Of a stretch of DNA of 64,000 bases, positions 28,696 to 43,296 are shown piece after piece (the stretch's first letter is position 1; every line of letters begins with the position of its first letter). The translations under genes and the position numbers were made by a program. This DNA is from Planctomycetota bacterium (GTDB lineage: Bacteria; Planctomycetota; PLA2; JAEUHO01). The stretch lies in the NCBI GenBank assembly GCA_965222115.1, contig CBDCTJ010000005.1, positions 64,001 through 128,000 on the forward strand. The letters are read 5' to 3'. A model generated the notes under the pieces. It did no database searches and was not told where the DNA came from. It worked only from the letters and a program-made list of their open reading frames with translations.

Positions 28696-29493
28696 ATGAG
28701 CGAATCACCCACCCCCACCCCGGATGCACGCACTACTGGGCAATCCACGGCTGACCGCTCGTCGGCGAATCAGGCGTCGGCGAGTCATGCGTCCGTCGAT
28801 TCCGACGGAGCAACTCGCACCGAACCAGGTGACTCCGGCGAGCCCGCGTTGGGTTACCGATTGATGGCCGATTTGCAACGCGTGCTGGCGGCGTCCTCCC
28901 CGAATGAATCATCTCAAGGGCAAGGCACTCCTGCCGACTCCATCGATGCGTTTCGCCCCATCTACGAGGCCTATGCCCCGCGCGTCATGCAGTTTTTCTT
29001 TCGCATGTGTGGCGATCGGTCCTTGGCCGAAGACTTGACACAGGACGTGTTCGTCAAAGTGTGGCGTGCAGCGCCATCGTGGCGCCCCGAAGCGCCGCTC
29101 CATACGTGGATCTTCACCATCGCTCGCTATCACGGGTGGAACGCACTGGCGTTTCGACGGCGGCGCAAGTCGGTTTGGCAACAGGCCGCAGATCAACCCG
29201 CTGTCAACGAACCGGCCGATTCCACGGCATCGAATCGAGTACCCCACGAACGACTCGCCGCGCGCGAGTTTGGAACCCACTTGCAGCGTGCGGTGCTCTC
29301 GCTTTCACCGCGCCTGCGAGTGGCGTTCGTCTTGGCGCGTTTCGAACGTCTCTCCCTGGCAGAAATCGCCCACATCGCAGGCGCCCCCATCGGCACCATC
29401 AAGAGCCGCATTGCCCGTGCGGAAAAACGGCTTCGGCGAGCGCTTTCGCATTCGCATGCATCCATGAAAGGGGGCTCTCATGACTCCCAATAA
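28696..29493 (+). CDS. ECF-type RNA polymerase sigma-70 factor
   Basis: Region 2 AEDLTQDVFVKVW...TWIFTIAR; region 4 LSPRLRVAFVL...LSLAEIA...PIGTIKSRIARA. Confidence 0.92.
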   Translation: MSESPTPTPDARTTGQSTADRSSANQASASHASVDSDGATRTEPGDSGEPALGYRLMADLQRVLAASSPNESSQGQGTPADSIDAFRPIYEAYAPRVMQFFFRMCGDRSLAEDLTQDVFVKVWRAAPSWRPEAPLHTWIFTIARYHGWNALAFRRRRKSVWQQAADQPAVNEPADSTASNRVPHERLAAREFGTHLQRAVLSLSPRLRVAFVLARFERLSLAEIAHIAGAPIGTIKSRIARAEKRLRRALSHSHASMKGGSHDSQ

Positions 29494-31036
29494 ACAGCAC
29501 AAGTCGCCCAATAAATCGCGCGGCGGCAGTTCGCACGATCTTGCTTCATTTGCATTGCATCTCCTCGATGCCGACGAGGCGCAATCGATCGAAGCGCGCG
29601 TTGCTCAGTCGCCCCGTGAATCCCGTGAACTCGACGATATCGCAGCGCATTTGGTCATGTACGACCGAATCGAAGGCGCACCGCCTGCCCCCACCTTTGA
29701 ACAGTTTCGTACACACGTGAAGTCGTCCGACGACGTAGATGCACCGCAGGCGCGTTTATCCGCCACAGTCAACGACTTCAGCTCGACGGACTCGTCAAAA
29801 CGTTGGTTTCGGCTTGGCATGGCAGCGGTCGCGCTACTGGCAATTGGCGCGGCAGCGCTGTGGGGATTCACGCGAGATCGCGGTAAGACGAATTCATCGC
29901 AGCTTGCAAGCATTTCGTGGGTTGGCCCGAGCGTTCAAACAGTTGCGGATGGTGCGCCGGCGCCCCTCAAGTCATCTTCGGCATTACAACCTGGCACGTG
30001 GCTCTATGGCGGCGAGGATGCAGGCGAGGTGCGCTACACAACGCGCAATCATACCGTTCGCCTCGTGCTTTCGTCCGGTGCATCGCTGCGATATACAAGT
30101 CCCACGCAGGTTTACTTGGAGAAGGGCAAGGCGTGGTTTGAGGTCACGAGACTTCAAACTGACACGAACGCATCGCCGATCACATTCCGCGTGTACTCAC
30201 CTCGCGGTGCAGTAAACGTGCTGGGCACGTCATTTCTTGTGGACGTCAACCGCGACGCGTTTTCCGTGGGCGTGTGGCATGGTGCTGTTGAGGTAAAACG
30301 TGCTGTGCAAATCACGCAAGACTCTAAGAACGATGCGAATGACGCCTTTCGTGTTGGCGCACGTGAATCGCTCGCATTTCACAGTTCGAGAGACGCGAGT
30401 ACGCCTGCTCCCACACGCGCGCCCTTCGCTTCACTTCCTGCATTCCTGTCAAAGGGCTTGGAACTCAGCACGCGCGTCGTGGCCGACGGCAAACAAGGCG
30501 ATGAATGGATCGTCGATTGCGTATTTCGAAATCGCGGTGGGCTGCGGCTATCTCTCAATGGCGACGACGAGGGGCAAAGCCCGCTTTGGTTGCACGTGAG
30601 CGATGCACAGGGCGGCCAAGTGAGCGCATTACCCGTGCTGCCAGTCAACATCGTCTCCCGATCCAACGAGACCGACTCAGATGCTGAGTTGGCGCCCTGG
30701 ATCGTTGCTACGAGCTCCGGACAGGCATCAGGCGCAGATTCAATCCTCGCGCCGGGCGAGTCGCGCGTGGTCCGAGTCCGATTCAAGGCGCCGCGCGTCC
30801 GAATGAAGGTCTCCGATGGTCCCCTGCCCCGCTACGTTTGTCGGGCGGTGTACCGAGGCGAAGCGCTCCCCCCGCTCCAATCCGCGCCAGTCCCAATTCA
30901 CGCCGCTCCCTCTCCTTTGAAGGAAGATGAGGCGGCAGAAAATGGGTCGATTGGCAACGGTTCGGAGCGAGCAGACGAGGCTCCGTCCGATGCCGCCAAC
31001 GGCGAATCGAAATCCACGGAGCAGCCCGGCCGATGA
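29480..31036 (+). CDS. FecR-domain transmembrane anti-sigma factor
   Basis: Overlaps sigma stop; N-terminal anti-sigma-like region without ZAS cysteines, TM, FecR motifs YLEKGKAWFEV, FRVYSPRGAVNVLGTSFLV, VWHGAVEV. Confidence 0.82.
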   Translation: MTPNKQHKSPNKSRGGSSHDLASFALHLLDADEAQSIEARVAQSPRESRELDDIAAHLVMYDRIEGAPPAPTFEQFRTHVKSSDDVDAPQARLSATVNDFSSTDSSKRWFRLGMAAVALLAIGAAALWGFTRDRGKTNSSQLASISWVGPSVQTVADGAPAPLKSSSALQPGTWLYGGEDAGEVRYTTRNHTVRLVLSSGASLRYTSPTQVYLEKGKAWFEVTRLQTDTNASPITFRVYSPRGAVNVLGTSFLVDVNRDAFSVGVWHGAVEVKRAVQITQDSKNDANDAFRVGARESLAFHSSRDASTPAPTRAPFASLPAFLSKGLELSTRVVADGKQGDEWIVDCVFRNRGGLRLSLNGDDEGQSPLWLHVSDAQGGQVSALPVLPVNIVSRSNETDSDAELAPWIVATSSGQASGADSILAPGESRVVRVRFKAPRVRMKVSDGPLPRYVCRAVYRGEALPPLQSAPVPIHAAPSPLKEDEAAENGSIGNGSERADEAPSDAANGESKSTEQPGR

Positions 31037-33798
31037 GCACCTCTTCTAAACAACACGGCTCCCTCCCACCAAGCGACGGATCGCGTAAGCAGAGCTCCCC
31101 GGAGGTGCGCAAAGTTCGCACCAGGCTCGGGTTGTTGCGCGCGCGTGTGCGCGGCATTCTCGCCACGGTAGCCACATGCAAATGGATCGTCGCTGCGGTC
31201 GGGGCATTGGCCGCATTCTTTGTCGCCGATTGGTTCCTCGACCTGCCCATGCATGTACGTCGTTTTCTGCGCTCGGGTCTCTTGACCCAACCGGAAACGT
31301 GGTCGGTCTTCGCGTGGTTGGCGGCGCTCGCGATAGCTATCGCCGTCGCGGTGGTATTTACGAAAGCACGCAGGCGCACCGCACCCTTCTTTGCGTTTAT
31401 CGCCTGTGGTCTCGTTGGACTCTTGGCGTGGTTTGCCTATCAGCAGTTTGCCCCCATCGGCGCACGCATTCGTGACGAAGAGTTGGCACTCGGTGTGGAG
31501 GCCCGTCACGCGGGGCTTCGACATCGCTTGGCGTCGGCGCTCGATTTCGACAAGACCATTCAGGGAACGACTGTAGAGAGTCCCCGAGGTGAAAGCCGCG
31601 AGTTGATGGAAGCCATGGTGGCCGAGACCACCGCCGAAGCGAAAGGCGTCAAGTTTGCGCGCGCTGCCAATAGCGCACCGGCCACGCGTTGGGTATCGCT
31701 TGCAGGTTTGGCACTTGCGGGTGCGGTGATCGCCATGATTGCGTTGCCGGCAACCAAACTTTGGGCACGACGCAGCCTGTTATTGGAAGACGTGGACTGG
31801 CCGCGCGACACCACCATGCTCGCCGTAGATGTTGACGTATTGGATGAGGCGAAGGCCTCGTCGGGCGACAACGCCAACGTTTCCACAGAAGGTGACTCAA
31901 ACAGCGCGATCAATACGCGCATCACGCCACACGATCCTAAGGTGCCATTTTCCGTAACGGTGGGACGACCGCTCACGATCTACGCATTGGCCGAGGGCGA
32001 CGCGCCCGATGAGGCCTACTTGTTGGACTTCGTCGAAGGGCAACAACCACTTTCGCGCCGCATGTATCAAGTGCCGGGACGCGACCATCTCTTCGCGTTT
32101 GAGTTTCGCGATGTGCGCCGTCCGTTCACCTTCATTCTTCGCGGGGGCGATGACGACGATGACCGCCCGGTCTATTCCGTGGAGATCAGCATTCCACCGC
32201 GCATTCAGTCCATTCAGACGTCGGTGACCTACCCGAGCTATCTGGGACTGGACGCCACAACGCACGATCGCGGCAGCGTGAGTGTTCCTCAGGGCTCAAT
32301 CATCAATGTCACGTTTGTGCCCGATGTCCCATTGTCCGCTGCGTTTGCATTGGTCGGCGGCAAACGCAGAGAGGTCACGCCCGTAAAGGTCCCCATGGGC
32401 GACAGCGAAGCCGACGGCTACCGCTTCACGTCCACGACGGAGTCATCGTTCCGCTACTCACTGGTGCTCGAAACACAGAGTGGCAAACGCAATGAATCGG
32501 CCGCCGATAGCTACGAAGTGCGAGTCAAAGAAGACCGCGCGCCTCGGCTCGACTGGATCTTCCCGCGCGGGTTGGGTGAGCGCACGGCCAAGGGACGTAT
32601 TCCCCTGTTGGTGCGTGCCTCGGATGATTACGGCATTGGCAGCCTTGCGCTTGAGTTGCGGGCAGGTGGTCAATCGGTTCAGCGTTTCGAGTTAGGGAAG
32701 GACGTAAGTGAGTCCGGCGAAGAAGAGTCCATAGCCACTGAACTGCGCCGTCGCCTACTGGAAAACGCCAAGATGGATGGTGATTTAGGCCGCGGCCAAA
32801 TCCTTGCGTATGTACCCATCGACATTCCTATGCTGCGCGACGACGAAGGTGTGCCTGTGTCTTCGCCCTCCCGTGTGAGCTTTCGCTTTGTCGCCAAAGA
32901 CACCAAGGGGCAAGTTCGCGAAGGCGAGTGGAACGCCATGGACATTTCGAGTGCCGGCGACATTGAACGCGGTCTGAGCAGCAGTCGTGCGTCGTTGCGC
33001 TCACAGCTTGCCGCGTTGCAACGCGAACAAAATGCTCGCCGTGATGATGTGGCAGCGATCCTGACCGAGTTCACGCGATCGGGCGCCGTCGATACCGATA
33101 CCACACGCGCCGACCGCGCCGAGGCACTTCGCAGCATTCGCTTTCGACAGGGACGCATCGCGCAGGATGCCCAACGTGCCACACGTGCGCTGATTCGCAT
33201 CTTCAATGACTTTGTTTACAACCGCCTCGGTGCGGCCAATCCTAATGAGCGCATCCTTGGCTACCTCAATCGCTATCACAATCAGACCTTTGGCGTCCCA
33301 GCGGCGGTTCGCGATCCCACGTTGCCTAAGTCAGCGCGTACATCAGCAGATAGCAGCCGCTCCTCGGATGTGAATGCCAATGGCGATCCCGTGTTTCCCT
33401 ACCGCCTCTATGACGACATTCTGGATGCGTGGCGCAACAAGGTCATTTATGACAAGGGACTCATTGAGCGCATGTTGTTGGTGATGCAGGACGCAGTGGA
33501 TATCGCTGCGCGCCTTGCACCGAAAACACACACGCTGGCGATCGACGCGGCGGGCGGCTCGCGCGCAAAGCGTGGCGCGGATGCACCCCTCGGCGACGCA
33601 CTAGAGACAGAACGCAAACGCATCAATGACCTGCTTAACTCGCAGGAGTCCGTGCTGGCGTCACTCGATCGACTGCTAAAGGCCATGAGCGGCTGGCAGA
33701 GTTTGAGCGACCTCACGATGGCGCTGCGCGGCATTGTGGAAGAGCAAGAGAGTCTTCGTGACCGCATGGAAACGATCGATTCGGAAGGATCGAAGTAA
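31033..33798 (+). CDS. DUF4175-like membrane protein (MoxR-cluster associated)
   Basis: N-terminal TMs, VEARHAGLRHRLASALDF, WPRDT, YPSYLG, DRAP, ASDDYGIGSL, C-terminal coiled coil; ATGA overlap with the FecR-like gene. Confidence 0.72.
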   Translation: MSTSSKQHGSLPPSDGSRKQSSPEVRKVRTRLGLLRARVRGILATVATCKWIVAAVGALAAFFVADWFLDLPMHVRRFLRSGLLTQPETWSVFAWLAALAIAIAVAVVFTKARRRTAPFFAFIACGLVGLLAWFAYQQFAPIGARIRDEELALGVEARHAGLRHRLASALDFDKTIQGTTVESPRGESRELMEAMVAETTAEAKGVKFARAANSAPATRWVSLAGLALAGAVIAMIALPATKLWARRSLLLEDVDWPRDTTMLAVDVDVLDEAKASSGDNANVSTEGDSNSAINTRITPHDPKVPFSVTVGRPLTIYALAEGDAPDEAYLLDFVEGQQPLSRRMYQVPGRDHLFAFEFRDVRRPFTFILRGGDDDDDRPVYSVEISIPPRIQSIQTSVTYPSYLGLDATTHDRGSVSVPQGSIINVTFVPDVPLSAAFALVGGKRREVTPVKVPMGDSEADGYRFTSTTESSFRYSLVLETQSGKRNESAADSYEVRVKEDRAPRLDWIFPRGLGERTAKGRIPLLVRASDDYGIGSLALELRAGGQSVQRFELGKDVSESGEEESIATELRRRLLENAKMDGDLGRGQILAYVPIDIPMLRDDEGVPVSSPSRVSFRFVAKDTKGQVREGEWNAMDISSAGDIERGLSSSRASLRSQLAALQREQNARRDDVAAILTEFTRSGAVDTDTTRADRAEALRSIRFRQGRIAQDAQRATRALIRIFNDFVYNRLGAANPNERILGYLNRYHNQTFGVPAAVRDPTLPKSARTSADSSRSSDVNANGDPVFPYRLYDDILDAWRNKVIYDKGLIERMLLVMQDAVDIAARLAPKTHTLAIDAAGGSRAKRGADAPLGDALETERKRINDLLNSQESVLASLDRLLKAMSGWQSLSDLTMALRGIVEEQESLRDRMETIDSEGSK

Positions 33799-33881
33799 TG
33801 AACGAACAATGGCTACGCGATCCTCGCCCTGGTAGGCACGCGCCGCGTGCACGCAACAACAGTTTTGACATGGAGAGCACG

Positions 33882-36800
33882 ATGAACACGACCACCCGCT
33901 TGGGCATGACGCGATGGGTTCTCGGACTTGCCATCTGCTTGGTTGCACTCCTCGCGGTGCCGCGTTTTGCGCGCGCCAAAGACGAGGCGAACGACTTGGA
34001 TGCGAAGAAGGAAGCTGAGCGCTTCCTCGCCGACCAACGTCGTATCCAGGGCAAGATTCTTCAGCTCGAAGACAATATGAAGGTCTTGGCGGCTGAACTT
34101 CGCCGCACCGGCCACGAGTACGAGGCCAAGCTGCTTGAGAACGGCCTTTCACACCTAAAGACCAGTGGTATCGGCGGTTATGTGTCGGCTGTGTTGGCGG
34201 CCCTCGGCGACAAGCAGCCAGAACGCGCGCGCGCCGCGGCCGATCAAGTGCGAGAGAGTCTCGGCGAACTGCTTGCCATTCTCGAAGACCGCAATCGCGA
34301 GTTTACTGAAAAACAACTCAAGGAACGGATGGAAGCCACCAAGAAGGCAACCGAGGTGTCCAAGGAGTTGATTGAGCGCGAAAAGAAGATCGAAGAAAAG
34401 CTGCGTGACCTCGCCGAAGGTAAGACGAGCGACGCGGGCAAGCAGGCGTCGGAACTTCGCGATCAAGTAGAGAAGCTCAAGCGCGAACACCAAGAGATCA
34501 ATGAGGCTATGAAGGATGCAGCCTCGAAAACCAAATCAGACAACCAGACCGATAAGCAGCGCGAAGAAGACGCGCGACGGGCGGCCGAGCAACTTGCGCG
34601 CCTCAACGACATGTTGGCGCGTCAGAAAGAAGCGTTGGAGAAAACTCGGAACGCCGAAGAAGCCAACAAAGCGAATGCCAATAAGAGTGACGCGAAATCA
34701 AAGGACTCAAAGTCCGATGATGGCGACAAGCGCGATCCCACAGCGTCGAGTTCGAAGGCGAGCGAGGCAGCAAAGGCGCGGCAAGAACAGGCAAAGAAGC
34801 TCGCCAGTGATGCGGCCCGACTTGCGCGGGCCGAGCGTCTCGCCCAGCAGAAGCTCATGCTGGATCAAACGCGCGAGGCCATTGGCAAACAGGCTCAAGC
34901 ACTCGCCGAGCGCGTCAAGCGCGAACGCGAAGCATCCAAGGCGCGGGCAGCAAAGGAAGCCACCGAGAAACTCGCCAGCGAAGCGAGCGCGGCCGGATCC
35001 AAAGCACCTGCATCAAATGACGACGCAAAGGCGGCTGCCGAAAAGTTGGATGCGATGGCGGCCAAGGCGACGGCTGAGGCAAAGAAGCTGAGTCAACCGT
35101 CTGAAAAGAACGCCGATGCTTCATCAAAGGACGAGCCGTCAAAGAGTGGAGAGTCGTCCAAGAGTGGTGATCCAAAGGGCTCTCCTTCTACTGCCGATCG
35201 GGCTGCCACTGATCCGGCTGCCAAGGCAGTTCAAGATGCTTTGAAAAAGCTCGCTGAAGCAGCAAAGAAGTCGGCCGATGCGGAACGAGGCCGTGCAAGC
35301 GCCGGCGGCAAGGGCGATCAAGCAAAGGCGGCATCGAAGACCGCAGAAGAAGCGCGCAAGGGATTGCGAGCGGCAGCCAATGAACTCAAGAGCGCCCAAC
35401 AAAAGGCGTCACGCGCACGCGCCGCCGCCGAGAAGCGCGCCGATGCATTGGCGAAAGACGCCGATCGGTTGAAGTCCACCACCGATTCGCTGGCGAAAGA
35501 AGCCGACAAGTTGCGCGCCGCGATGGATGCCCTTCAGAAGCAAGCGGAAGCCGCAGCGAAGGCCGCTGGGGCTCCAGCAAACGCAAACGGCGGTTCGCCA
35601 AGTGGCAACGCACAGGCGGAAGCTGCGCAAAGGGCTGCCGACGCCAAAGCGAAAGCAGCCATGGCTGCGGCCAAAGACAAACTCGACGCGCTTTCCAAGT
35701 CGGTCGGCGAAGGCAAAGACAGTGATGCCGCAAGTGCTGCGACCGCCGCCGAAAAGGCACTCGCAGAAGCCGCAAAGGCACTTGGTGCCGACAGTAAGGG
35801 GTCACAAAAGGCTGGATCGGAAAAGGGCGACGAGGGATCAAATTCGGGTGGCGAGTCGGGTTCATCCGGTAACGAGTCGGGTGAGAACAAGACTGGCGAG
35901 TCCGCTTCGAGTTCGTCGAGTCAACGAGAAGCAGCCGCCAATGCCGAGTCGGAACGCGCGAAGGCCGCGGCCGCACTTGCTGCGAAGCTAAAGGCACTGG
36001 CCGAAGCCCATCGCGCTGCGAAGCCCGGCAGTAACGCCACAGGTGACGAATCGGGTTCTGCGGGTGAACAGAATGACTCCGGTGAATCGGATGAAGCGTC
36101 TGCTAAGGCCGCCGAAGAGGCAGCCAAGCGCGCCGATGCAGCAGCGGGCGCAATGAATCGTGCTGGCGAAGCCATGGGTGAAGGCGATACGGCTGGCGCC
36201 ATGTCGGCACAAGATGAAGCCATTGGCAACCTTGAAGAAGCTGCCCGAGCATTGGGTGAAGCCATGGGCGAGGCCAATGACGGCTCGACCGGCGGCGAGT
36301 CGGGCCAATCATCGGAAGCCGACTCCGAGTCAAACCCATCCGGTGAGAACGGATCGGAGAGCGGCGGTTCCGAAAGCGGCTCGTCCGGTGAACAGAGCGG
36401 TTCAAGCGGCGAGTCACCAGGTGTCTCTCCGGAAGAACTCGCCGAGATGCAAAAGAAGATTCGCGAAGCCACTGAAGCGCTTGCCAATGACATGCGCGGC
36501 GGCGGATCCGAAGGTAGTGACTCAGAAGGCACTGATTCCAAAGGCAGTGACTCGAGCGGGTCTGAGTCGTCTGGATCGGAGTCATCGGGTTCTGAGTCAT
36601 CCGGTAGTGAGTCCAAGGGTAGTGAATCAAGTGGATCGGAATCTTCGGGATCGGAGTCGTCTGGTTCAGAGCAGAGCGGTTCAGAACAAAGTGGCTCCGA
36701 GAGCAAGACACCCAATCCTGAGAAGGCCCCCAAGGTGGATGTGGCCACGGAGTCCATGCGCGAAGCCGAAGAGGCTCTGGAGCGTGGTGATTTGGATACG

Positions 36801-38171
36801 GGTCGCCGGGCACAAGAAAACGCCGTGCGTGAGTTGGAAGAAGCGGCGGGCGAACTCGCAGAGAAGACCCGTCGTCTCCGAGAAGAGGCCAAGAAAGCTG
36901 AAGCCCTTGCTGAACAACAACGGAAACTCGCCGAGCGCGCAAAGAAGCTCGCCGAGCAGTCGCGAAAACTCGATGCGAATACCGACAAGGCAAAGGACGC
37001 CGCCCGTCGTGCAGCCGACGCGCTCAAACGTGCCGAAGAAGGCATGAAGAAGCAAGCGCAGCAATCCAAGAGCGGATCCCAGCAGTCCGGCTCGCAGCAA
37101 TCCGGTTCACAAGAATCTGGTTCGCAGCAATCGGACTCTCAACAGCAACAGCAGCAACAAGAACAAGTGCAACAAGCGCTCGACGAAGCGCAGAAAGCCC
37201 TCGATGAAGCGGCGAAGAGCGAAGAGAGCACGCCGCCCGATTACGACCGCATCAAGAAGCAGTTGATGGACGAGCAAGAAGAGGTGCGCAAGCGCCTCAA
37301 GTCGCTCAAGGAAGCGCTTGAGAAGAGCGAGTCGGACGGTGCGCAACAAAGTTCACAGCAGGCGCAAAAGTCCATGCAGCAGGCGCAGGATCAGATGCAG
37401 ATCGACTCCCCCAAGACGGCGGCCGAGAGTGCAGAAGAAGCGCGTAAGTACATGGAAGAAATGAAAGAACAACTCGAGAAGGAACAGCGTCGCTACCAGT
37501 CGCTGCGCCAAGAGGAGTTGCTCTACCGTCTCGTACGCGATCTCAAGTCCTACCGCGATCGCCAAATTGAAGTGCGCTCCCTCACCAAGGAGTTCGCGGA
37601 GAAGATGGCGCTCAAGGGACGCTTGAGCCGTAAGGACAAGAAGAAGGTGCGTCGCGTATTGGCGAAGGAGCAAACGCTACTGGCCAAGCTTGTCGCCGAG
37701 CGTCTGGAAGCGGTCAAGAAGGAAGAATCCACGGCGTTCGCTGCCATCATGGAAGAAGTGATGCTCGATATGCAGGCCGTTGCAGGCATGCTTGAAGACA
37801 TCGACCTCGGCCCGCTCACCGTGGGCATTCAAACTGAGATCATTCAGCGCATCAGTGACTTGGTTGGCGGCTTTGAAGACATCATTAAGCAGAAGCAAGA
37901 TCCCCCCGGCAACGAACCCCCGCCGCAAGGTCAACCCAAGCCCAAGCTCGTTCCGCCCATCGTGGAGATCAAGCTATTGCGTCGTCTCCAGAACGACCTC
38001 AACGTGAAGGCCCAGAACTTCTGGCGCCGCAATCCCAAGCTCCAGCAAGGCGAAGTGACCGAGCGTCAACGGCGCATGCTTGAGCGACTCTCCCTCCAGC
38101 AGGGACGTTTGAAGAAAGTGCTCGACGAGCTGATTCAACAGGTATTTGGACAGGAAGAAGGTCCTAAGTAA
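33882..38171 (+). CDS. Large secreted coiled-coil protein with Ser/Gly/Glu/Gln-rich disordered linkers (DUF4175/TIGR02302-like)
   Basis: Signal peptide ending ARA-K; long heptad regions; C-terminal PKLVPPIVEIKLLRRLQNDLN. Start ATG 33882 has GGAGA RBS (ATG 33798 possible). Confidence 0.75.
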   Translation: MNTTTRLGMTRWVLGLAICLVALLAVPRFARAKDEANDLDAKKEAERFLADQRRIQGKILQLEDNMKVLAAELRRTGHEYEAKLLENGLSHLKTSGIGGYVSAVLAALGDKQPERARAAADQVRESLGELLAILEDRNREFTEKQLKERMEATKKATEVSKELIEREKKIEEKLRDLAEGKTSDAGKQASELRDQVEKLKREHQEINEAMKDAASKTKSDNQTDKQREEDARRAAEQLARLNDMLARQKEALEKTRNAEEANKANANKSDAKSKDSKSDDGDKRDPTASSSKASEAAKARQEQAKKLASDAARLARAERLAQQKLMLDQTREAIGKQAQALAERVKREREASKARAAKEATEKLASEASAAGSKAPASNDDAKAAAEKLDAMAAKATAEAKKLSQPSEKNADASSKDEPSKSGESSKSGDPKGSPSTADRAATDPAAKAVQDALKKLAEAAKKSADAERGRASAGGKGDQAKAASKTAEEARKGLRAAANELKSAQQKASRARAAAEKRADALAKDADRLKSTTDSLAKEADKLRAAMDALQKQAEAAAKAAGAPANANGGSPSGNAQAEAAQRAADAKAKAAMAAAKDKLDALSKSVGEGKDSDAASAATAAEKALAEAAKALGADSKGSQKAGSEKGDEGSNSGGESGSSGNESGENKTGESASSSSSQREAAANAESERAKAAAALAAKLKALAEAHRAAKPGSNATGDESGSAGEQNDSGESDEASAKAAEEAAKRADAAAGAMNRAGEAMGEGDTAGAMSAQDEAIGNLEEAARALGEAMGEANDGSTGGESGQSSEADSESNPSGENGSESGGSESGSSGEQSGSSGESPGVSPEELAEMQKKIREATEALANDMRGGGSEGSDSEGTDSKGSDSSGSESSGSESSGSESSGSESKGSESSGSESSGSESSGSEQSGSEQSGSESKTPNPEKAPKVDVATESMREAEEALERGDLDTGRRAQENAVRELEEAAGELAEKTRRLREEAKKAEALAEQQRKLAERAKKLAEQSRKLDANTDKAKDAARRAADALKRAEEGMKKQAQQSKSGSQQSGSQQSGSQESGSQQSDSQQQQQQQEQVQQALDEAQKALDEAAKSEESTPPDYDRIKKQLMDEQEEVRKRLKSLKEALEKSESDGAQQSSQQAQKSMQQAQDQMQIDSPKTAAESAEEARKYMEEMKEQLEKEQRRYQSLRQEELLYRLVRDLKSYRDRQIEVRSLTKEFAEKMALKGRLSRKDKKKVRRVLAKEQTLLAKLVAERLEAVKKEESTAFAAIMEEVMLDMQAVAGMLEDIDLGPLTVGIQTEIIQRISDLVGGFEDIIKQKQDPPGNEPPPQGQPKPKLVPPIVEIKLLRRLQNDLNVKAQNFWRRNPKLQQGEVTERQRRMLERLSLQQGRLKKVLDELIQQVFGQEEGPK
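36513..36707 (+). repeat. 13 tandem pentapeptide units (consensus GSESS) within the CDS
   Basis: GSDSE GTDSK GSDSS GSESS x3 GSESK GSESS x3 GSEQS x2 GSESK, with synonymously diversified codons. Confidence 0.85.
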
Positions 38172-38307
38172 GCAGTTTCGGCGCGACGCACCCGCGGCAT
38201 TTGATTCTTCAAGAACCGCTGGCTCGCGTTTGTGTCATACTAGAGAGTGGATGTTGCGTAAGCGCTGTGTTTGCAGCCGTTTCGCATGCCACCGCGGAGG
38301 TACTCGC

Positions 38308-39195
38308 ATGAGCCTTAAATCGATGAGCCCTAACCCGATATGTCGAGCACGCTGGCTGATTCCAGCGGTTGCGCTTGGCTTGATGATCGCACTTGCACCC
38401 GCGAGTCGCGCCGAAGAGGAAGCCGGTGGCGACCTCAAGGAGAAGATCCGCAAGCAGATGGAAAAGATTCGCGACCTCATGAAAGAGAATGAGGACGCAC
38501 TTCTTGATCTGAGCACCGGTGGGAAATCCAAGCCCAAGGCGGTGGACGTCGAAGTGCCCAATCCGCCTTCCTCTTCAGGCGGCTCGTCGTCAGGCGATGA
38601 ATCGGGAAGCTCGGGCGAATCGGGATCATCGGGTGAGTCCGGTAGTGAATCGGGATCAAAGGGCGAATCTAATAAGGGCACGGGCGAAGAGATCCGTCGC
38701 AAGCTCGACAAGTTGATCGAGAGTCAAAAGGGTGCCTCCAAGGCCATCCCCAGCGAACTCGAAAACCTCGTCAAGATGATTCCCTTGTGAAACAGTTGCA
38801 GCGGCCAGTTTGGTTCGCAGTCAAAGTCTCAGAAGCCTCAAAGCGGTTCAAAGAACGGTGAAGATCAACAAGCCGATGCACGCGACGCGCGCAGCAAGGA
38901 GTTGTCGGAAGCCGAACGTCGTCGCCGTGAACGCGAAATGGCGGGCAAAGAAAACCAGCCCCAGAACGGCGAGAAGAGCAAGGATCCCACCGCGCGTGGC
39001 AACAACGCCAAAGAAGATCCAAACGCCGATAAGGTCCCCACGCGCGACGACAAGTTGGCGCCGTGGATCACGGCCTTGCCGCCGGAGTGGCGCGATGCTG
39101 CCAAGGCAGGCGTGTGGGAGAAGATTCCTGCGCGCTATCGCGAGCTGCTTCGACGCTACAGCAAGGACTTGCAGAAGAACGACACGGAACGTTAG
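38308..39195 (+). CDS. Secreted protein with in-frame TGA (candidate selenocysteine, U161-x-x-C164)
   Basis: GGAGG RBS, signal peptide ending ASRA. Track ORFs 38146-38790 and 38902-39195 are in the same frame with only TGA 38788-38790 between them; readthrough gives KMIPL-U-NSCSG...PWITALPPEWR...IPARYRELLRRY. Confidence 0.6.
38795..38824 (+). promoter_or_regulatory. Putative bacterial SECIS element
   Basis: Stem GCGGCCA (38801-38807) / TGGT-T-CGC (38811-38818) with bulged U and apical loop GUU starting 17 nt after the UGA; extendable lower stem. Confidence 0.45.
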
Positions 39196-39232
39196 AAAGA
39201 CAAACGTTAGAAAGACAAACGTTAGAAAGACA
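39188..39232 (+). repeat. Perfect 15-bp tandem repeat x3 spanning the stop codon
   Basis: AACGTTAGAAAGACA at 39188, 39203, 39218; partial CGTTAGA at 39238. Confidence 0.95.
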
Positions 39233-39390
39233 CAGGTCGTTAGAGCGACTCACTCGATTTCGCTCACCTAAAACGCCGCGAATGCCGCATGCATTCGCGG
39301 CGTCTTCATTTTTTGGTAGGTCCCTCACCTGCGCTCAAACGTGCGCCCCGTACACTCGGATGCATTCGAACTGTGTCGGAGGACTTACCG

Positions 39391-42300
39391 ATGAAGCAAC
39401 TACTTCTACTCGTCACGTTGCTGGCGTTGGCCGCCGCGGCCTACTTCGTTCTCAGTTCGGGCATGGGCGAATCCGACAGGGACGCGTCGTCTACAGCCAC
39501 CGACGTAGATCCTTCGCACAGCAATGAGGCATTGACCGCCAGTGAACGCGACAAAGAAGCGTCGTCCATGACAGGACTGCACGTAGCCGATTCGGTTCGC
39601 CGCAAGCGCCCCGCCTCCAACTTTGAACCGGGCAACAGTGCCATCGTCGGACGCGTAACGCTTGGCGGCGCACCGGTGGCGGCCGCGGTGGAGCTTAGGT
39701 TCGAGCGAGGCCTACAGGCCAGTCGTCCGGGCGAACCCACGCTCACCGGCTTCATCAAAATGATCGATCAGTTTCTTCAAGGCGGTCTCACGGCGGGGCC
39801 GGCACTGAAGTCAGCGACGGCAAACAAAGACGGCCAGTTTCAGTTCGATGGCCTCGGGCGTGGACACTACGAAGTTCGCGCCTTCGATGACCAAGGTCGC
39901 CTGCAGAACGAGCGCGTCGCCATCGAAGTTGAGGGCGTGAACGTACGAACGGACATTGCCCTGCCAAACGGTGAGCACGCTCTTCGCGGCAAGGCCATGT
40001 TCTCAGACAAGACGCCATTTCAAGGTTGGGTAACGGCAACGCACAGCTCGGGTAACGAACGCATGTCGCCTTTCGGGATGATCGGCGGTCAATCGACGCG
40101 CGTCAAGAGTGATGGGTCGTTTGAGATCCCCGGCCTCGTCGAAGGTACGTACGGCATCACGCTCGTGCAGCCGCGCAAACTGCGTTTCACATCCATGGGA
40201 CACCAGGTGCCTTCAGAATCCAATGTTGACGTCATCATTCCCTTCGGCGAAGAGAAGCTCACTGGCCAGGTTGTATCGTCGGTCGATCAAACGCCGATCG
40301 CCAGCGCCCATGTCTTGGTGGGCTCTATGAGTGAGCGCGGCTTCTTGGTGATGACAACCACAACGGATGGCGGCGGCCGGTTTCAAGCATCCTCCAGCGG
40401 CATCGATCGGGGAGGTCTCGTTGTCCGCGCAAAGGGCTTTGCGGCCAAGCAGGTCCAACTGCGCGGCATCGATCTGACCGAACCCATCACCATCGCTCTC
40501 GACCCCCATGGAAGCGTTTCTGGGCGAGTGATTGACGCGAGCGGAACCGGCATCGAAGGCGTCACAGTTACCCTCCATTCCCAAGGCCCGGATGGTCGAG
40601 AAACGATGAGCCAAGTGTCAGCGGTTAGTGGCGCTGACGGCGCGTACGCTATCGAGACTGTACCTGCGGGTCGCATATCCGCATCCGCCGCGGGTAACGG
40701 ATATGTGAGCGAACTCGTAAGTGAGATTGCGTCCGGTCGCATGAAGGGCGAAGCGCTTGAAGCGAATGGCTCGTTGGAAATCGACGTAAAAGTCACGCGC
40801 GCAGCACGGGTAGAAGGAACGATAACATCAAGCGACGGGAAGCCCATCGCGGGCGCCAAGGTGTCGCTTGAAGAGAAAGAATCGCAGGCGTCGTTCATGC
40901 GCAGGTTCCTCATGTTGGGTAGCAATGAGGGCTCGACAGCCACCGATGAGCAGGGGCGCTACGTCATTGAAAACTGTGTTCCCGGGGAAGGGCAGTTCAT
41001 TCGCGTTGTCACCACCGACTATCCCGAGGCGAAGTCCGATCCCTTCAAACTCAAGGGAAGCGAAACGCGTCGCGTCGATCTTCGCATCGACGCAGGGCGC
41101 GACGTCACAATTCGAGTAACCGATGCCGAGTCCAATGCGCCGATCCCCGCAGCCACGATCATGCTGCTCAACGCTAGCAATGACGCACGCAGCATTGCCA
41201 TCATGATGGGTACGGCAAAGCCCATAACCGTGACTACGGACGAGTCCGGAGAGGCCGTGGTGAAGGCGCCGAGTGGACCGGCCAATGTCATGGTCAGCGC
41301 CTCGGACTACATCAACCCGGAAAAGCCCGTAACTCTCGAACCCGACGCCACGTCGGTCGCCGTGTCGCTAGTGAAAGGTATGGTGATCTCAGGTAGAGTT
41401 GAGACGATCGACGACGTTCCCATGTCTTCGATTCGTGTTTCGGTTGAACGTACGAGGAATCTCGCGGGCGGTCGTTGGTATCACGAGTCGACGAGTCCCG
41501 ATACATCGGGCGCCTTCAAGATTAGCAAGGTGCCTGTGGGCCAGTTCAAAGCGTCGGCGCATGCAACGACCAAGACCTGGAAGTACGAGGCCTCGGCCGT
41601 CGTCGATGCAGGGGTCACAGATGTCGTGTTAACACTAAAGCGAGCAAGCAAGCGACGTGTGCTCACGATCAAGGTTATAGGGCCCGACGGCAAGCCGGTG
41701 AAATCAGGACAGGTCTCGTTGCAATGGGAACACGACGGCGGCACGCACTCCACGAGCGGCCGCGTTTCTATGGGCAAGGGCACGTTTGAACTGAATGATC
41801 AAGACGCAAAGGGCGCATTGTACGTCCATGTGAAGTCACTTCCCCGTGGACTGGGTAGCGCGACCGTTGGACCTCTGGATGCGATACCATCCGACAACGA
41901 GATCATTGTCAATGTCCCTCGAGGACGTTCGATTTCGGGGCGCGTTGTCAGCGGCGGTAATGGCGTCCCTGGCGTTCAGATCTACGCCAAACTTCAAAGC
42001 GAGTCAATTAACACCTACCTCCGTCAATCCGAACGCGTAAACTCCGGCGCAGATGGATCGTTCTCCATCGATGGACTGGGGCCCGGCTCCTATGAGTTGT
42101 CAATTGATGACCATCGTTCGTGGATGGGCCCCGAAAAGAATCCCGTGGTGCGTGCGGGTGCCAACGGCGTCGTGATCAACGTCACGCAGCTCGAACGCGC
42201 CACAGTACGGGTCGTGGATACGTCGGGTCGTCCGGTGGTTAGTGCACGGATTCAGTGTTATCCAGCGGCCCAGCCTACCGGCAAACGTCGCGTTCACTAT

Positions 42301-43296
42301 CCGAGTGCTCCGAAGTCTGACAGTGACGGCGTGAGCGACATCTCGGGACTCATGCCCGGCATGAAATACAACCTACAGGTGTCACCGCCAACGGATCAGA
42401 TGGACACGTTCGGCACCGTGAGCAAGAAGAACTGGACGCCGGCCGACGAAACCATCATGCTTCCGCGCGGCTACGTGATCTCGGGCCGTGTACTGAATGC
42501 AAAGGGTGCACCCATTCGCGCGGGCATGATCTACATAAAGCCAGTCGATAGCAATGCGTGGAACGGAACACCAATGAAGGAAAACGGAGCCTTTGAACTC
42601 AAGGGACTCACAAAGGGCGAATACGTGATCAAGGCAGTACCGACGGGGATGGATCACTTCATGCAGCCGCCCGATTCCGATGCGCCGGTACCGTTTCAAG
42701 ACACGGTCAGCGCTGGAACCCACAACGTAGTGCTTCGAGGAGATACCAAAGAATCCATCGACGTCACATTTGAAGGCCTCACCCCAAGCGCATCACCGAG
42801 CGACGTCCGCGTTCGGGGCATTCCCGTGATGATCCCTGGAGGAAGCCACCGGCACGTGTACATGATCGAAGAGCAGAATGGCACACGCAAGCAAGCCATG
42901 CTCAAAAACGGCAAGCTCATCGTGTATGGCATTGACGCAGCCAAGACGTACACCGTGGGCCTCTACCGTCTCCCGAAGGGAAAGTACTACCTTCGGAAGG
43001 GACTCAAGGCCGGCGACAACGTCACGCTTCAGCCTCAACAAGGCGTCACGCTTACGGGCGAGGTTGCCTTTCCACCGGGTGTGAGCCCTGCGCGGACGTA
43101 CGTGCGGATTGAAGTTCCCGGCGGAACGCTGAGTGCAAACGTGCGGTCGAATGGCGAGATGTCAATCGAAGGTGTCCCCCCCGGTACATGGAAGGTGGCG
43201 GCTACCGCGCAAGTCGACAAACAAGCCTACCGCGGTACGGCCAACGTAACACCGGGCACGCCCGCCACAATTACGCTGACGCGCGTCGATCAATAG
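39391..43296 (+). CDS. Carboxypeptidase-regulatory-like (beta-sandwich) repeat protein, membrane anchored or secreted
   Basis: N-terminal hydrophobic segment; repeated GRV.D..G.P..GA.V...T...G.F.I..L..G.Y motifs. Start ATG 39391 with GGAGG RBS. Confidence 0.85.
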   Translation: MKQLLLLVTLLALAAAAYFVLSSGMGESDRDASSTATDVDPSHSNEALTASERDKEASSMTGLHVADSVRRKRPASNFEPGNSAIVGRVTLGGAPVAAAVELRFERGLQASRPGEPTLTGFIKMIDQFLQGGLTAGPALKSATANKDGQFQFDGLGRGHYEVRAFDDQGRLQNERVAIEVEGVNVRTDIALPNGEHALRGKAMFSDKTPFQGWVTATHSSGNERMSPFGMIGGQSTRVKSDGSFEIPGLVEGTYGITLVQPRKLRFTSMGHQVPSESNVDVIIPFGEEKLTGQVVSSVDQTPIASAHVLVGSMSERGFLVMTTTTDGGGRFQASSSGIDRGGLVVRAKGFAAKQVQLRGIDLTEPITIALDPHGSVSGRVIDASGTGIEGVTVTLHSQGPDGRETMSQVSAVSGADGAYAIETVPAGRISASAAGNGYVSELVSEIASGRMKGEALEANGSLEIDVKVTRAARVEGTITSSDGKPIAGAKVSLEEKESQASFMRRFLMLGSNEGSTATDEQGRYVIENCVPGEGQFIRVVTTDYPEAKSDPFKLKGSETRRVDLRIDAGRDVTIRVTDAESNAPIPAATIMLLNASNDARSIAIMMGTAKPITVTTDESGEAVVKAPSGPANVMVSASDYINPEKPVTLEPDATSVAVSLVKGMVISGRVETIDDVPMSSIRVSVERTRNLAGGRWYHESTSPDTSGAFKISKVPVGQFKASAHATTKTWKYEASAVVDAGVTDVVLTLKRASKRRVLTIKVIGPDGKPVKSGQVSLQWEHDGGTHSTSGRVSMGKGTFELNDQDAKGALYVHVKSLPRGLGSATVGPLDAIPSDNEIIVNVPRGRSISGRVVSGGNGVPGVQIYAKLQSESINTYLRQSERVNSGADGSFSIDGLGPGSYELSIDDHRSWMGPEKNPVVRAGANGVVINVTQLERATVRVVDTSGRPVVSARIQCYPAAQPTGKRRVHYPSAPKSDSDGVSDISGLMPGMKYNLQVSPPTDQMDTFGTVSKKNWTPADETIMLPRGYVISGRVLNAKGAPIRAGMIYIKPVDSNAWNGTPMKENGAFELKGLTKGEYVIKAVPTGMDHFMQPPDSDAPVPFQDTVSAGTHNVVLRGDTKESIDVTFEGLTPSASPSDVRVRGIPVMIPGGSHRHVYMIEEQNGTRKQAMLKNGKLIVYGIDAAKTYTVGLYRLPKGKYYLRKGLKAGDNVTLQPQQGVTLTGEVAFPPGVSPARTYVRIEVPGGTLSANVRSNGEMSIEGVPPGTWKVAATAQVDKQAYRGTANVTPGTPATITLTRVDQ

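Follow-up and report, generated by a model that had tools for sequence, protein, structure and literature searches.

The 64,000-nucleotide (nt) stretch of Planctomycetota bacterium DNA analyzed here (positions 64,001 to 128,000 of contig CBDCTJ010000005.1, assembly GCA_965222115.1; hereafter the window, numbered from its first letter) contains at positions 38308 to 39195 a gene whose reading frame is interrupted by one TGA codon. A preliminary description, made from the letters of the window, had proposed that the gene encodes a secreted selenoprotein of an undescribed family, with selenocysteine (Sec, U) and cysteine in a U-x-x-C motif, and that gene callers split it in two at the TGA. The elements of the gene are as follows.

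38296..38300, plus strand, Shine-Dalgarno sequence GGAGG, as read from the sequence, 7 nt before the ATG at 38308
38308..39195, plus strand, candidate selenoprotein gene, 295 codons followed by TAG when UGA161 is taken as Sec
38308..38412, plus strand, putative signal peptide by sequence pattern, residues 1 to 35, with predicted cleavage after S-R-A and before E-E-E
38788..38790, plus strand, in-frame TGA, proposed Sec161, its column kept in 13 genomes and 3 metagenome loci
38797..38799, plus strand, TGC, Cys164, the U-x-x-C partner, invariant across the TGA forms and present in 0 of 18 aligned TGA-less homologs
38801..38818, plus strand, hairpin GCGGCCA / GUU / UGGU-U-CGC resembling a selenocysteine insertion sequence (SECIS), with the stem 11 nt and the loop 17 nt after the TGA
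39064..39192, plus strand, C-terminal helical domain, W253...LPPE.RDA...IP.RYR.L..RY, the best-modelled part of the protein

Translation of positions 38308 to 39195 gave a frame of 295 codons in which the only in-frame stop is the TGA at codon 161, in the context K-M-I-P-L-[TGA]-N-S-C-S-G-Q-F-G. Under genetic code table 11 this frame falls into two open reading frames (ORFs), one ending at 38790 and the other running from 38902 to 39195, and the 37 codons between them contain zero stops, which bears out the shared frame first described. The downstream half also lacks a well-spaced ribosome-binding site and start, as had been noted: the only in-frame starts after the TGA are a TTG at 38902, which an AAGGAG abuts with no spacer, and an ATG at 38938 that has no Shine-Dalgarno sequence. 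If the TGA is read as Sec, the tryptic peptide across the site would be MIPL-U-NSCSGQFGSQSK. TGA also serves as the stop of the FecR-like gene at 31036 and of 5 of the 19 stop-to-stop frames of at least 400 codons in the window. Because TGA ends other genes of the window, we conclude, in agreement with the preliminary description, that the codon has not been globally reassigned. At the other end of the gene, a perfect 15-nt unit, AACGTTAGAAAGACA, occurs in three head-to-tail copies at 39188 to 39232 and overlaps the TAG stop.

The TGA could be a sequencing or assembly error, or a nonsense mutation specific to the strain. Frameshifts do occur elsewhere in the assembly, in selD, and one contig of public run X1 lacks a base at 38176. 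The TGA site itself, however, is identical in contigs of three public runs (two samples of one study, perhaps with the source sample among them). Moreover, 12 other genomes and three metagenome loci carry the same TGA, and 59 database fragments end at the exact position. The probability of an error or strain-specific mutation is next to none, and this explanation is ruled out by the TGA shared among relatives together with the contigs of the three runs. A second contig of the same sample in run X1 matches only the best-conserved parts of window positions 38439 to 38791; it reads U-S-S-C-S-G-Q-G-G from the TGA on and represents a TGA-form homolog of a different organism.

Conservation was assessed by searching 61 related genomes with the read-through protein at a homolog cut-off of E ≤ 1e-3. 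Homologs were found in 34 of the 61 genomes, and a 10-row alignment used as query found three metagenome loci, all of them TGA forms. The 13 genomes with a TGA copy all lie within the window's own bacterial family, where they span 11 genera; of the other genomes of that family (29 in all), 11 have TGA-less copies only and 5 gave no match. Each TGA copy holds exactly one in-frame TGA in the same column, and across the copies the motif reads MIP[TLQM]-U-[SNDK][SG]-C, always with the U-x-x-C spacing. The TGA is thus conserved with coding sequence on both sides in 13 genomes and three metagenome loci, as the preliminary description would predict. The 18 aligned TGA-less homologs are single uninterrupted proteins of the same architecture, and a word-index protein search with the read-through protein returned one match, P0002, which is also a TGA-less form. 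A weak match (E 9.4e-4) with one in-frame TGA was seen in a genome from a different family of the phylum (G050, contig C41:21464-21961).

If the TGA were a true stop, only an N-terminal product of about 160 residues would be made, and the downstream frame would be a decaying remnant or a small gene with a start of its own. A truncated product fits this explanation and, given the low efficiency of Sec insertion in bacteria, probably forms either way. The downstream frame, however, is kept as if it were translated together with the upstream one. All 15 TGA forms have their C-terminal W...LPP motif in the reading frame of the TGA (frame 0) with no stop between, and the distance from the TGA to the motif takes 10 different values, from 225 to 285 nt, all multiples of three. 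Moreover, the C-terminal domain is as well conserved in the TGA forms as in the uninterrupted forms. Neither a start nor a Shine-Dalgarno sequence is conserved past the TGA: the first in-frame start lies beyond W...LPP in two genes, there is none at all in a third, and in two further TGA forms it lies only 9 nt before the motif. Because the first three genes have no usable start ahead of the domain, the domain cannot arise in them as a separate protein. The called starts of the orphan C-terminal pieces in databases are scattered over many codons, U-x-x-C and the residues that follow it are conserved, and a remnant would not be expected to last in 13 genomes from 11 genera. We conclude that a true stop at the TGA is quite improbable.

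The extent of the family was surveyed with a profile of 31 homologs against 1.84 billion representative proteins, which gave 583 matches at E ≤ 1e-3, of which the 150 best were examined. Among these 150, 59 are fragments of 91 to 182 amino acids (aa) that break off exactly ahead of the site, at [LIVM]P plus zero to two residues; some two dozen others are orphan C-terminal pieces. Another 49 run past the motif, 47 of them without either Cys and two, P0009 and P0020, with Cys. P0009 (271 aa) aligns over its whole length (38% identity, E 3e-45) and reads L-C-D-S-C-SGQLG where the window protein reads L-U-N-S-C-SGQFG. In the tree, P0009 is the sister of two TGA forms inside a TGA-form clade, with support 100/99. 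A Cys-for-Sec homolog of the kind foreseen in the preliminary description therefore exists, as one sequence on two contigs. A search for related DNA loci with P0009 gave no match, and a degenerate DNA pattern of the motif, run on species-representative genomes, matched with TGY 0 times and with TGA 7 times. Two other members are of unusual build: P0087 (850 aa) carries the family region at its C terminus (residues 634 to 846) as a fused form, and P0117 ends in MIPC, with Cys directly before the presumed TGA.

The genome carries the genes for Sec incorporation, and its selA, selB, and tRNA-Sec genes are intact. SelA was found with 416.3 bits, its gene lying at the very start of contig C7 (4-1092), SelB with 346.6 bits against a cut-off of 242.25, and tRNA-Sec with 71.6 bits against a threshold of 47. 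SelD was matched outside the window at C1:654443-655201 (locus L034) with 150.6 bits against a cut-off of 125, and its N terminus reads G-G-TGA-A-A-K, the Sec form of SelD. Across the 61 genomes, SelA was found in 53, SelB above its cut-off in 54, and tRNA-Sec above its threshold in 46. Because the machinery is near-universal in the order, it does not separate genomes with the TGA form from those without it. The genome also contains at least four further genes with one in-frame TGA each, in classic selenoprotein motifs.

C7:2324572-2324787, Rdx, C-S-M-U
C7:2272665-2273063, Prx, F-T-F-V-U
C3:119856-120200, thioredoxin (Trx) fold, G-T-x-U-x-P-C
C7:2028037-2028303, Trx fold, G-T-x-U-x-P-C

Gene calling with table 11 would split or truncate all four.

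A hairpin at 38801 to 38818, with its loop 17 nt after the UGA, had been predicted from the window, and RNAfold formed it at that place. In E. coli fdhF the spacing is 11 nt and the loop is GU, and the bSECISearch model has a small apical loop with G or GU. All 15 TGA forms fold into a SECIS-like hairpin with a stem of 5 to 7 bp and a loop of 3 to 5 nt, 10 to 14 nt past the TGA. At least three stem sequences occupy this one place: (C)G[AG]GCC / AGUU[CG] / GGCUC(G); the window's type, GCGGCCA / GUU / UGG[UC]-N-CGC; and CGGCUC / GGUC / GAGCCG with relatives that have GGGC loops. A rule calling for at least 5 bp, a loop of 3 to 6 nt, a G in the first two loop letters, and a loop start 14 to 25 nt after the codon was passed by 13 of the 15 TGA forms (the other two have bulged stems), by 1 of 18 TGA-less forms at the same site, and by 1310 of 7641 (17%) other in-frame sites. 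Mean stability relative to the rest of the gene was z -1.32 for the TGA forms and -0.05 for the TGA-less forms. Since the hairpin sequences are related to one another, p-values for these comparisons overstate the difference. As a control from the same genome, the four known-family selenoprotein genes have a G at position 1 or 2 of the loop and a loop start 17 to 22 nt after the TGA, and one of the Trx-fold genes reads CCCA-GGU-UGGG with the exact spacing of the target's GCCA-GUU-UGGU.

Readthrough of the TGA as something other than Sec, either as near-cognate Trp or Cys or by local recoding unrelated to SelB, would account for the frame kept across the codon, and the hairpin could in principle stimulate such readthrough. 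This explanation is highly improbable, however, as the motif is U-x-x-C with an invariant Cys three residues on, a homolog with Cys in place of the TGA exists, and TGA ends other genes. Moreover, the spacing and G-containing loop of the hairpin match those of the known selenoprotein genes of the same genome, in which the full Sec machinery is present (the selD match being frameshifted).

Several observations, given in this paragraph and the next, weigh against decoding of the TGA as Sec. Both Cys residues are absent from 18 of 18 aligned TGA-less homologs and from 47 of the 49 database proteins extending beyond the motif. The comparison of homologs, as the preliminary description had framed it, thus came out in part as expected, with single genes and one Cys form, and in part otherwise, with non-Cys residues at the site in every aligned TGA-less homolog. 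The absence of both Cys residues from most TGA-less relatives indicates that the motif is dispensable for the scaffold; we read it as loss or absence of the whole motif, which does not run counter to Sec. The Sec/Cys pair rests on P0009, one database protein known at the protein level from two contigs, and the second Cys form, P0020, reads L-C-S-G-N-C, which is a different spacing. TGA forms do not separate from TGA-less forms on the tree, and its well-supported branches require at least five state changes, so that the family alternates between having U-x-x-C and lacking the motif, and Cys forms are rare. A scaffold that tolerates loss of the motif and changes state this often would also fit a true stop. 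Three genomes carry a TGA-less copy followed in tandem by a TGA copy, and two of these pairs are mutual closest relatives (support 99/99 and 90/94), suggesting gene conversion or repeated duplication; one genus has a TGA form as the sister of a TGA-less form (100/98). The structural model, described below, is also poor around the site, with a predicted local distance difference test score (pLDDT) of about 47 to 68.

The remaining points concern the hairpin and selD, and they too would favor a true stop. Of the whole set, the hairpin in the window is the weakest, at -7.1 kcal/mol; the 61-nt stretch containing it scored z +0.66 against shuffles, and of 261 other 30-nt windows in the gene, 82 are as stable or more so. 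The hairpin thus forms where it was predicted but, taken within this gene alone, is not exceptional. Covariation among 12 sequences was not significant, the observed score being reached by 69 of 500 and 112 of 500 shuffles in two registers, and only two pairs are double-changed, in one sequence each, with three core pairs invariant. Because the hairpin overlaps the conserved codons of C-[SG]-[SG]-Q-[FL]-G, constraint on the RNA and on the peptide is inseparable. An Rfam scan around the TGA gave no family, with two chance-level matches (E 6.8 and 7.9). Finally, selD is frameshifted, with five TGA and one TAA in the match and three frames needed to read it, so that of the four genes selD alone was found above its cut-off in broken form. 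As the match falls within the final 1.2 kb of contig C1, assembly error and pseudogene or decay are indistinguishable; it may be that the ends of C1 and C7 join and that the frameshifts are errors of a contig end.

The hairpins of the genome's own selenoprotein genes are more telling than covariation. The comparative tests support the secreted U-x-x-C selenoprotein, undescribed family, and split by gene callers that the preliminary description had proposed. We conclude that the UGA at 38788 to 38790 is very probably decoded as selenocysteine and that, weighed as a whole against its rivals, this account is probably the best explanation of the locus.

By its sequence pattern the protein is predicted to be exported, with cleavage after A35. 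Consistent with export, 31 of 31 aligned homologs have an N-terminal hydrophobic stretch with small residues at its end, followed by an acidic mature start. After the signal peptide come, in order, a helix with the pattern KI+xQMEKIxxLMxENExALL, an S/G-rich linker, a helix ending IPxELExLVxMIP, and U-x-x-C; a Q/K/E-rich linker then leads to the C-terminal helical domain. W253, L257, P258, and P274 are invariant over the 31 homologs. An AlphaFold2 (AF2) model had an overall pLDDT of 64 and a predicted template modelling score of 0.26, with the C-terminal domain at pLDDT 87 to 95. The model consists of helix and coil with zero beta-strands and places U161 in a loop, in keeping with the preliminary view that the protein does not adopt a thioredoxin fold.

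No family could be assigned. Pfam gave no match (best E 0.28, unrelated) and no thioredoxin-type hit at E ≤ 1, NCBIfam release 20 gave no match (best E 0.34, far below cut-off), and a Foldseek comparison of the target model with PDB structures found nothing at E ≤ 0.001. A protein atlas search with P0009 returned only Planctomycetota clusters without a family name, and its DUF4175 lead, at 0.79, was below use. A description of the family was not found in the passages of the literature covered, including those of Table 1 of PMC13188914, of PMC12013277, and of PMC4807772; among supplementary tables, S9 Table of PMC4807772 and S2 of PMC12013277 may list related candidates. We conclude that, as far as the literature, Pfam, and NCBIfam checks reach, the family is most likely undescribed.

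The gene is the last of a five-gene cluster whose junctions are overlapping or close. The other elements of the cluster are as follows.

28696..29493, plus strand, sigma-70 factor of the extracytoplasmic function (ECF) type, Pfam Sigma70_r2 and Sigma70_r4_2, first gene of the cluster
29480..31036, plus strand, FecR-like anti-sigma factor, Pfam FecR 38.4 bits, overlapping the sigma gene and ending in TGA
31033..33798, plus strand, 921-aa membrane protein with N-terminal helices, tandem Ig-like beta-sandwich domains, and a C-terminal helical bundle
33798..38171, plus strand, 1457-aa secreted protein with coiled coil, S/G/E-rich low complexity, and a conserved C-terminal region of about 300 aa
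39273..39303, plus strand, terminator-like hairpin of 13 pairs, 9 of them G-C, with a T-rich tail, closing the operon

The sigma gene matched NCBIfam TIGR02937 (sigma70-ECF) with 91.3 bits against a cut-off of 42.9, and the FecR-like gene matched an NCBIfam anti-sigma model at E 1.6e-8, below the cut-off of that model. The 921-aa protein has no Pfam or NCBIfam family, and its AF2 model (pLDDT 73) matched only generic Ig-domain arrays in Foldseek. The 1457-aa protein likewise has no family match in Pfam or NCBIfam, and its C-terminal region is 44 to 57% identical among relatives. The five-gene order is kept in five of five long loci of relatives, all five with the ECF sigma and FecR-like anti-sigma genes upstream, and shorter loci agree as far as their flanks reach; the gene directly upstream of the family gene is always the homolog of the 1457-aa protein. 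The S/G/E-rich linker of the target, GSSGESGSSGESGSESGS (38560 to 38680), resembles in composition and repeat style the GSESSGSESSGSE tracts of the 1457-aa protein (36400 to 36700).

A TGA-less family member modelled as a complex with the C-terminal region of its own neighbor scored 0.44, and the best of three controls scored 0.00. The mark used was reached by 58 of 80 solved pairs and 2 of 110 mismatched pairs; with a score of 0.60 or below, just 7 of the 80 solved pairs got to that mark, as did both of those mismatches. The runs agreed in at least 25% of contacts, with the partner at pLDDT 41 to 43. These models give weak support to docking of the family protein on the C-terminal region of its neighbor. 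Profile comparison of the family with that region gave a homology probability of 0.8%.

The preliminary description had assigned the gene to a MoxR-associated, DUF4175-like operon, and this assignment is incorrect. The cluster consists of the ECF sigma, FecR-like, 921-aa, and 1457-aa genes besides the target and contains no MoxR, DUF58, or VWA gene. The DUF4175-like label traces to a single weak six-frame match (29.7 bits) within the 921-aa gene, which hmmscan did not reproduce. The nearest MoxR-type gene, an AAA_3 gene at 1482 to 1886, lies 37 kb upstream, past a block of minus-strand genes; it is one of six in the genome and was probably the source of the operon label. Downstream of the cluster, an ORF at 39289 to 43296 (1335 aa) contains 11 carboxypeptidase-regulatory-like (CarboxypepD_reg) repeats and is nonsyntenic with the cluster in relatives. 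The terminator-like hairpin falls in the 5′ end of this ORF as listed, and the ORF probably starts later, near a signal-like stretch M-K-Q-L-L-L-L about 100 nt downstream.

The mechanism of Sec insertion is in itself a standard one. By analogy with the usual bacterial pathway, the hairpin 11 nt past the UGA would recruit SelB with Sec-tRNA(Sec), and readthrough would yield one 295-aa protein exported by its N-terminal signal peptide. The protein would consist of helices joined by disordered S/G/Q/K-rich linkers, with U161-x-x-C164 in a flexible stretch after the IP.ELE.LV.MIP helix. Once in the envelope, Sec161 and Cys164 could form a reversible selenenylsulfide or bind a soft metal, and a small helical adaptor would carry this site as an addition responsive to redox state or metal. 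Since the scaffold works without the motif in many relatives, U-x-x-C looks like a module that was added and does not make up the core function of the family. The adaptor may dock on the C-terminal region of the 1457-aa neighbor and play a part like that of the periplasmic accessory proteins of envelope-stress systems. We offer this function tentatively and regard it as rather doubtful: within an ECF sigma module, the envelope adaptor would bear a site for a selenenylsulfide or a metal.

Alternatively, the UGA might act as a selenium-gated switch, beyond being a codon for a catalytic residue, between two products that differ in their effect on the ECF sigma/anti-sigma envelope module. At a low supply of Sec-tRNA, the product would be a secreted two-helix protein of about 125 residues ending in MIPL, and when selenium is present, a mature protein of 260 residues with U-x-x-C and the C-terminal docking domain. 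Such a switch would explain the toggling between Sec and nothing, the tandem TGA-less and TGA copies in three genomes, and the position of the motif at the joint of two modules. We consider the switch unlikely.

Among described selenoproteins, the closest in kind are the UGSC-containing protein (NF041046), the CYCXC family (PF13798), and the hypothetical protein GOS_C (NF045500), all listed in Table 1 of PMC13188914. As given in that table, these share with the new family an in-frame TGA in a short redox-type motif (UxxC or UGSC) followed by a SECIS-like hairpin, and no enzymatic function is assigned to them. None of their models matches the new family, however, which differs from what the table gives of them in being exported, long, and largely disordered, in lying in an ECF sigma cluster, and in having almost no Cys counterparts. 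The same table lists exported thioredoxin-fold UxxC proteins, namely, the Prx-like thiol:disulfide oxidoreductase, DsbA-like protein, and thiol:disulfide interchange protein. With these, as far as the table describes them, the new protein shares a signal peptide, U-x-x-C, and presumed selenenylsulfide chemistry in the envelope, and its own genome holds two exported thioredoxin-fold genes of the UxxC type. Unlike in the thioredoxin fold, the motif of the new protein is modelled in a flexible linker and not at a helix N terminus after a beta-strand.

Other likenesses would lie in the way the protein works or in its genomic setting. With regard to setting, the DUF4175/MoxR-associated operons also have long low-complexity envelope proteins as neighbors, and one weak DUF4175 hit recalls them; the present operon differs in having no MoxR, DUF58, or VWA gene and no DUF4175 by hmmscan. 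RseB with RseA/sigma-E and CpxP with CpxA are periplasmic accessory proteins of envelope-stress systems, and the new protein resembles them as a small exported protein, encoded by the last gene of a sigma/anti-sigma cluster, that plausibly modulates a larger envelope partner. Binding of the new protein to its neighbor is weakly supported in silico, and there is no relation to RseB or CpxP in sequence or fold. Eukaryotic SELENOS and SELENOK carry Sec in an intrinsically disordered segment and work as adaptors, not as globular enzymes, membrane anchored and facing the cytosol. The likeness to them is in working mode only, as they belong to a different domain of life with a different SECIS system and have no sequence relation to the new family.

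Nearly all selenoproteins have more abundant Cys homologs, according to a 2026 review (PMC13188914). In the new family, TGA and Cys forms stand at about 59:2 among the 150 best database relatives, and the common alternative has neither residue. The family was likely missed because standard discovery relies on Sec/Cys pairs and Cys forms are rare here. Gene callers routinely cut its members in two, and reannotation is possible for at least 59 database clusters that would be N-terminal halves and for about two dozen orphan C-terminal halves. The gene would thus represent a new selenoprotein family, exported, mostly disordered, outside the thioredoxin fold, and tied to an ECF sigma envelope cluster. 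It would offer a tractable case of Sec outside a catalytic fold, in which selenium supply may feed into envelope signaling in Planctomycetota.

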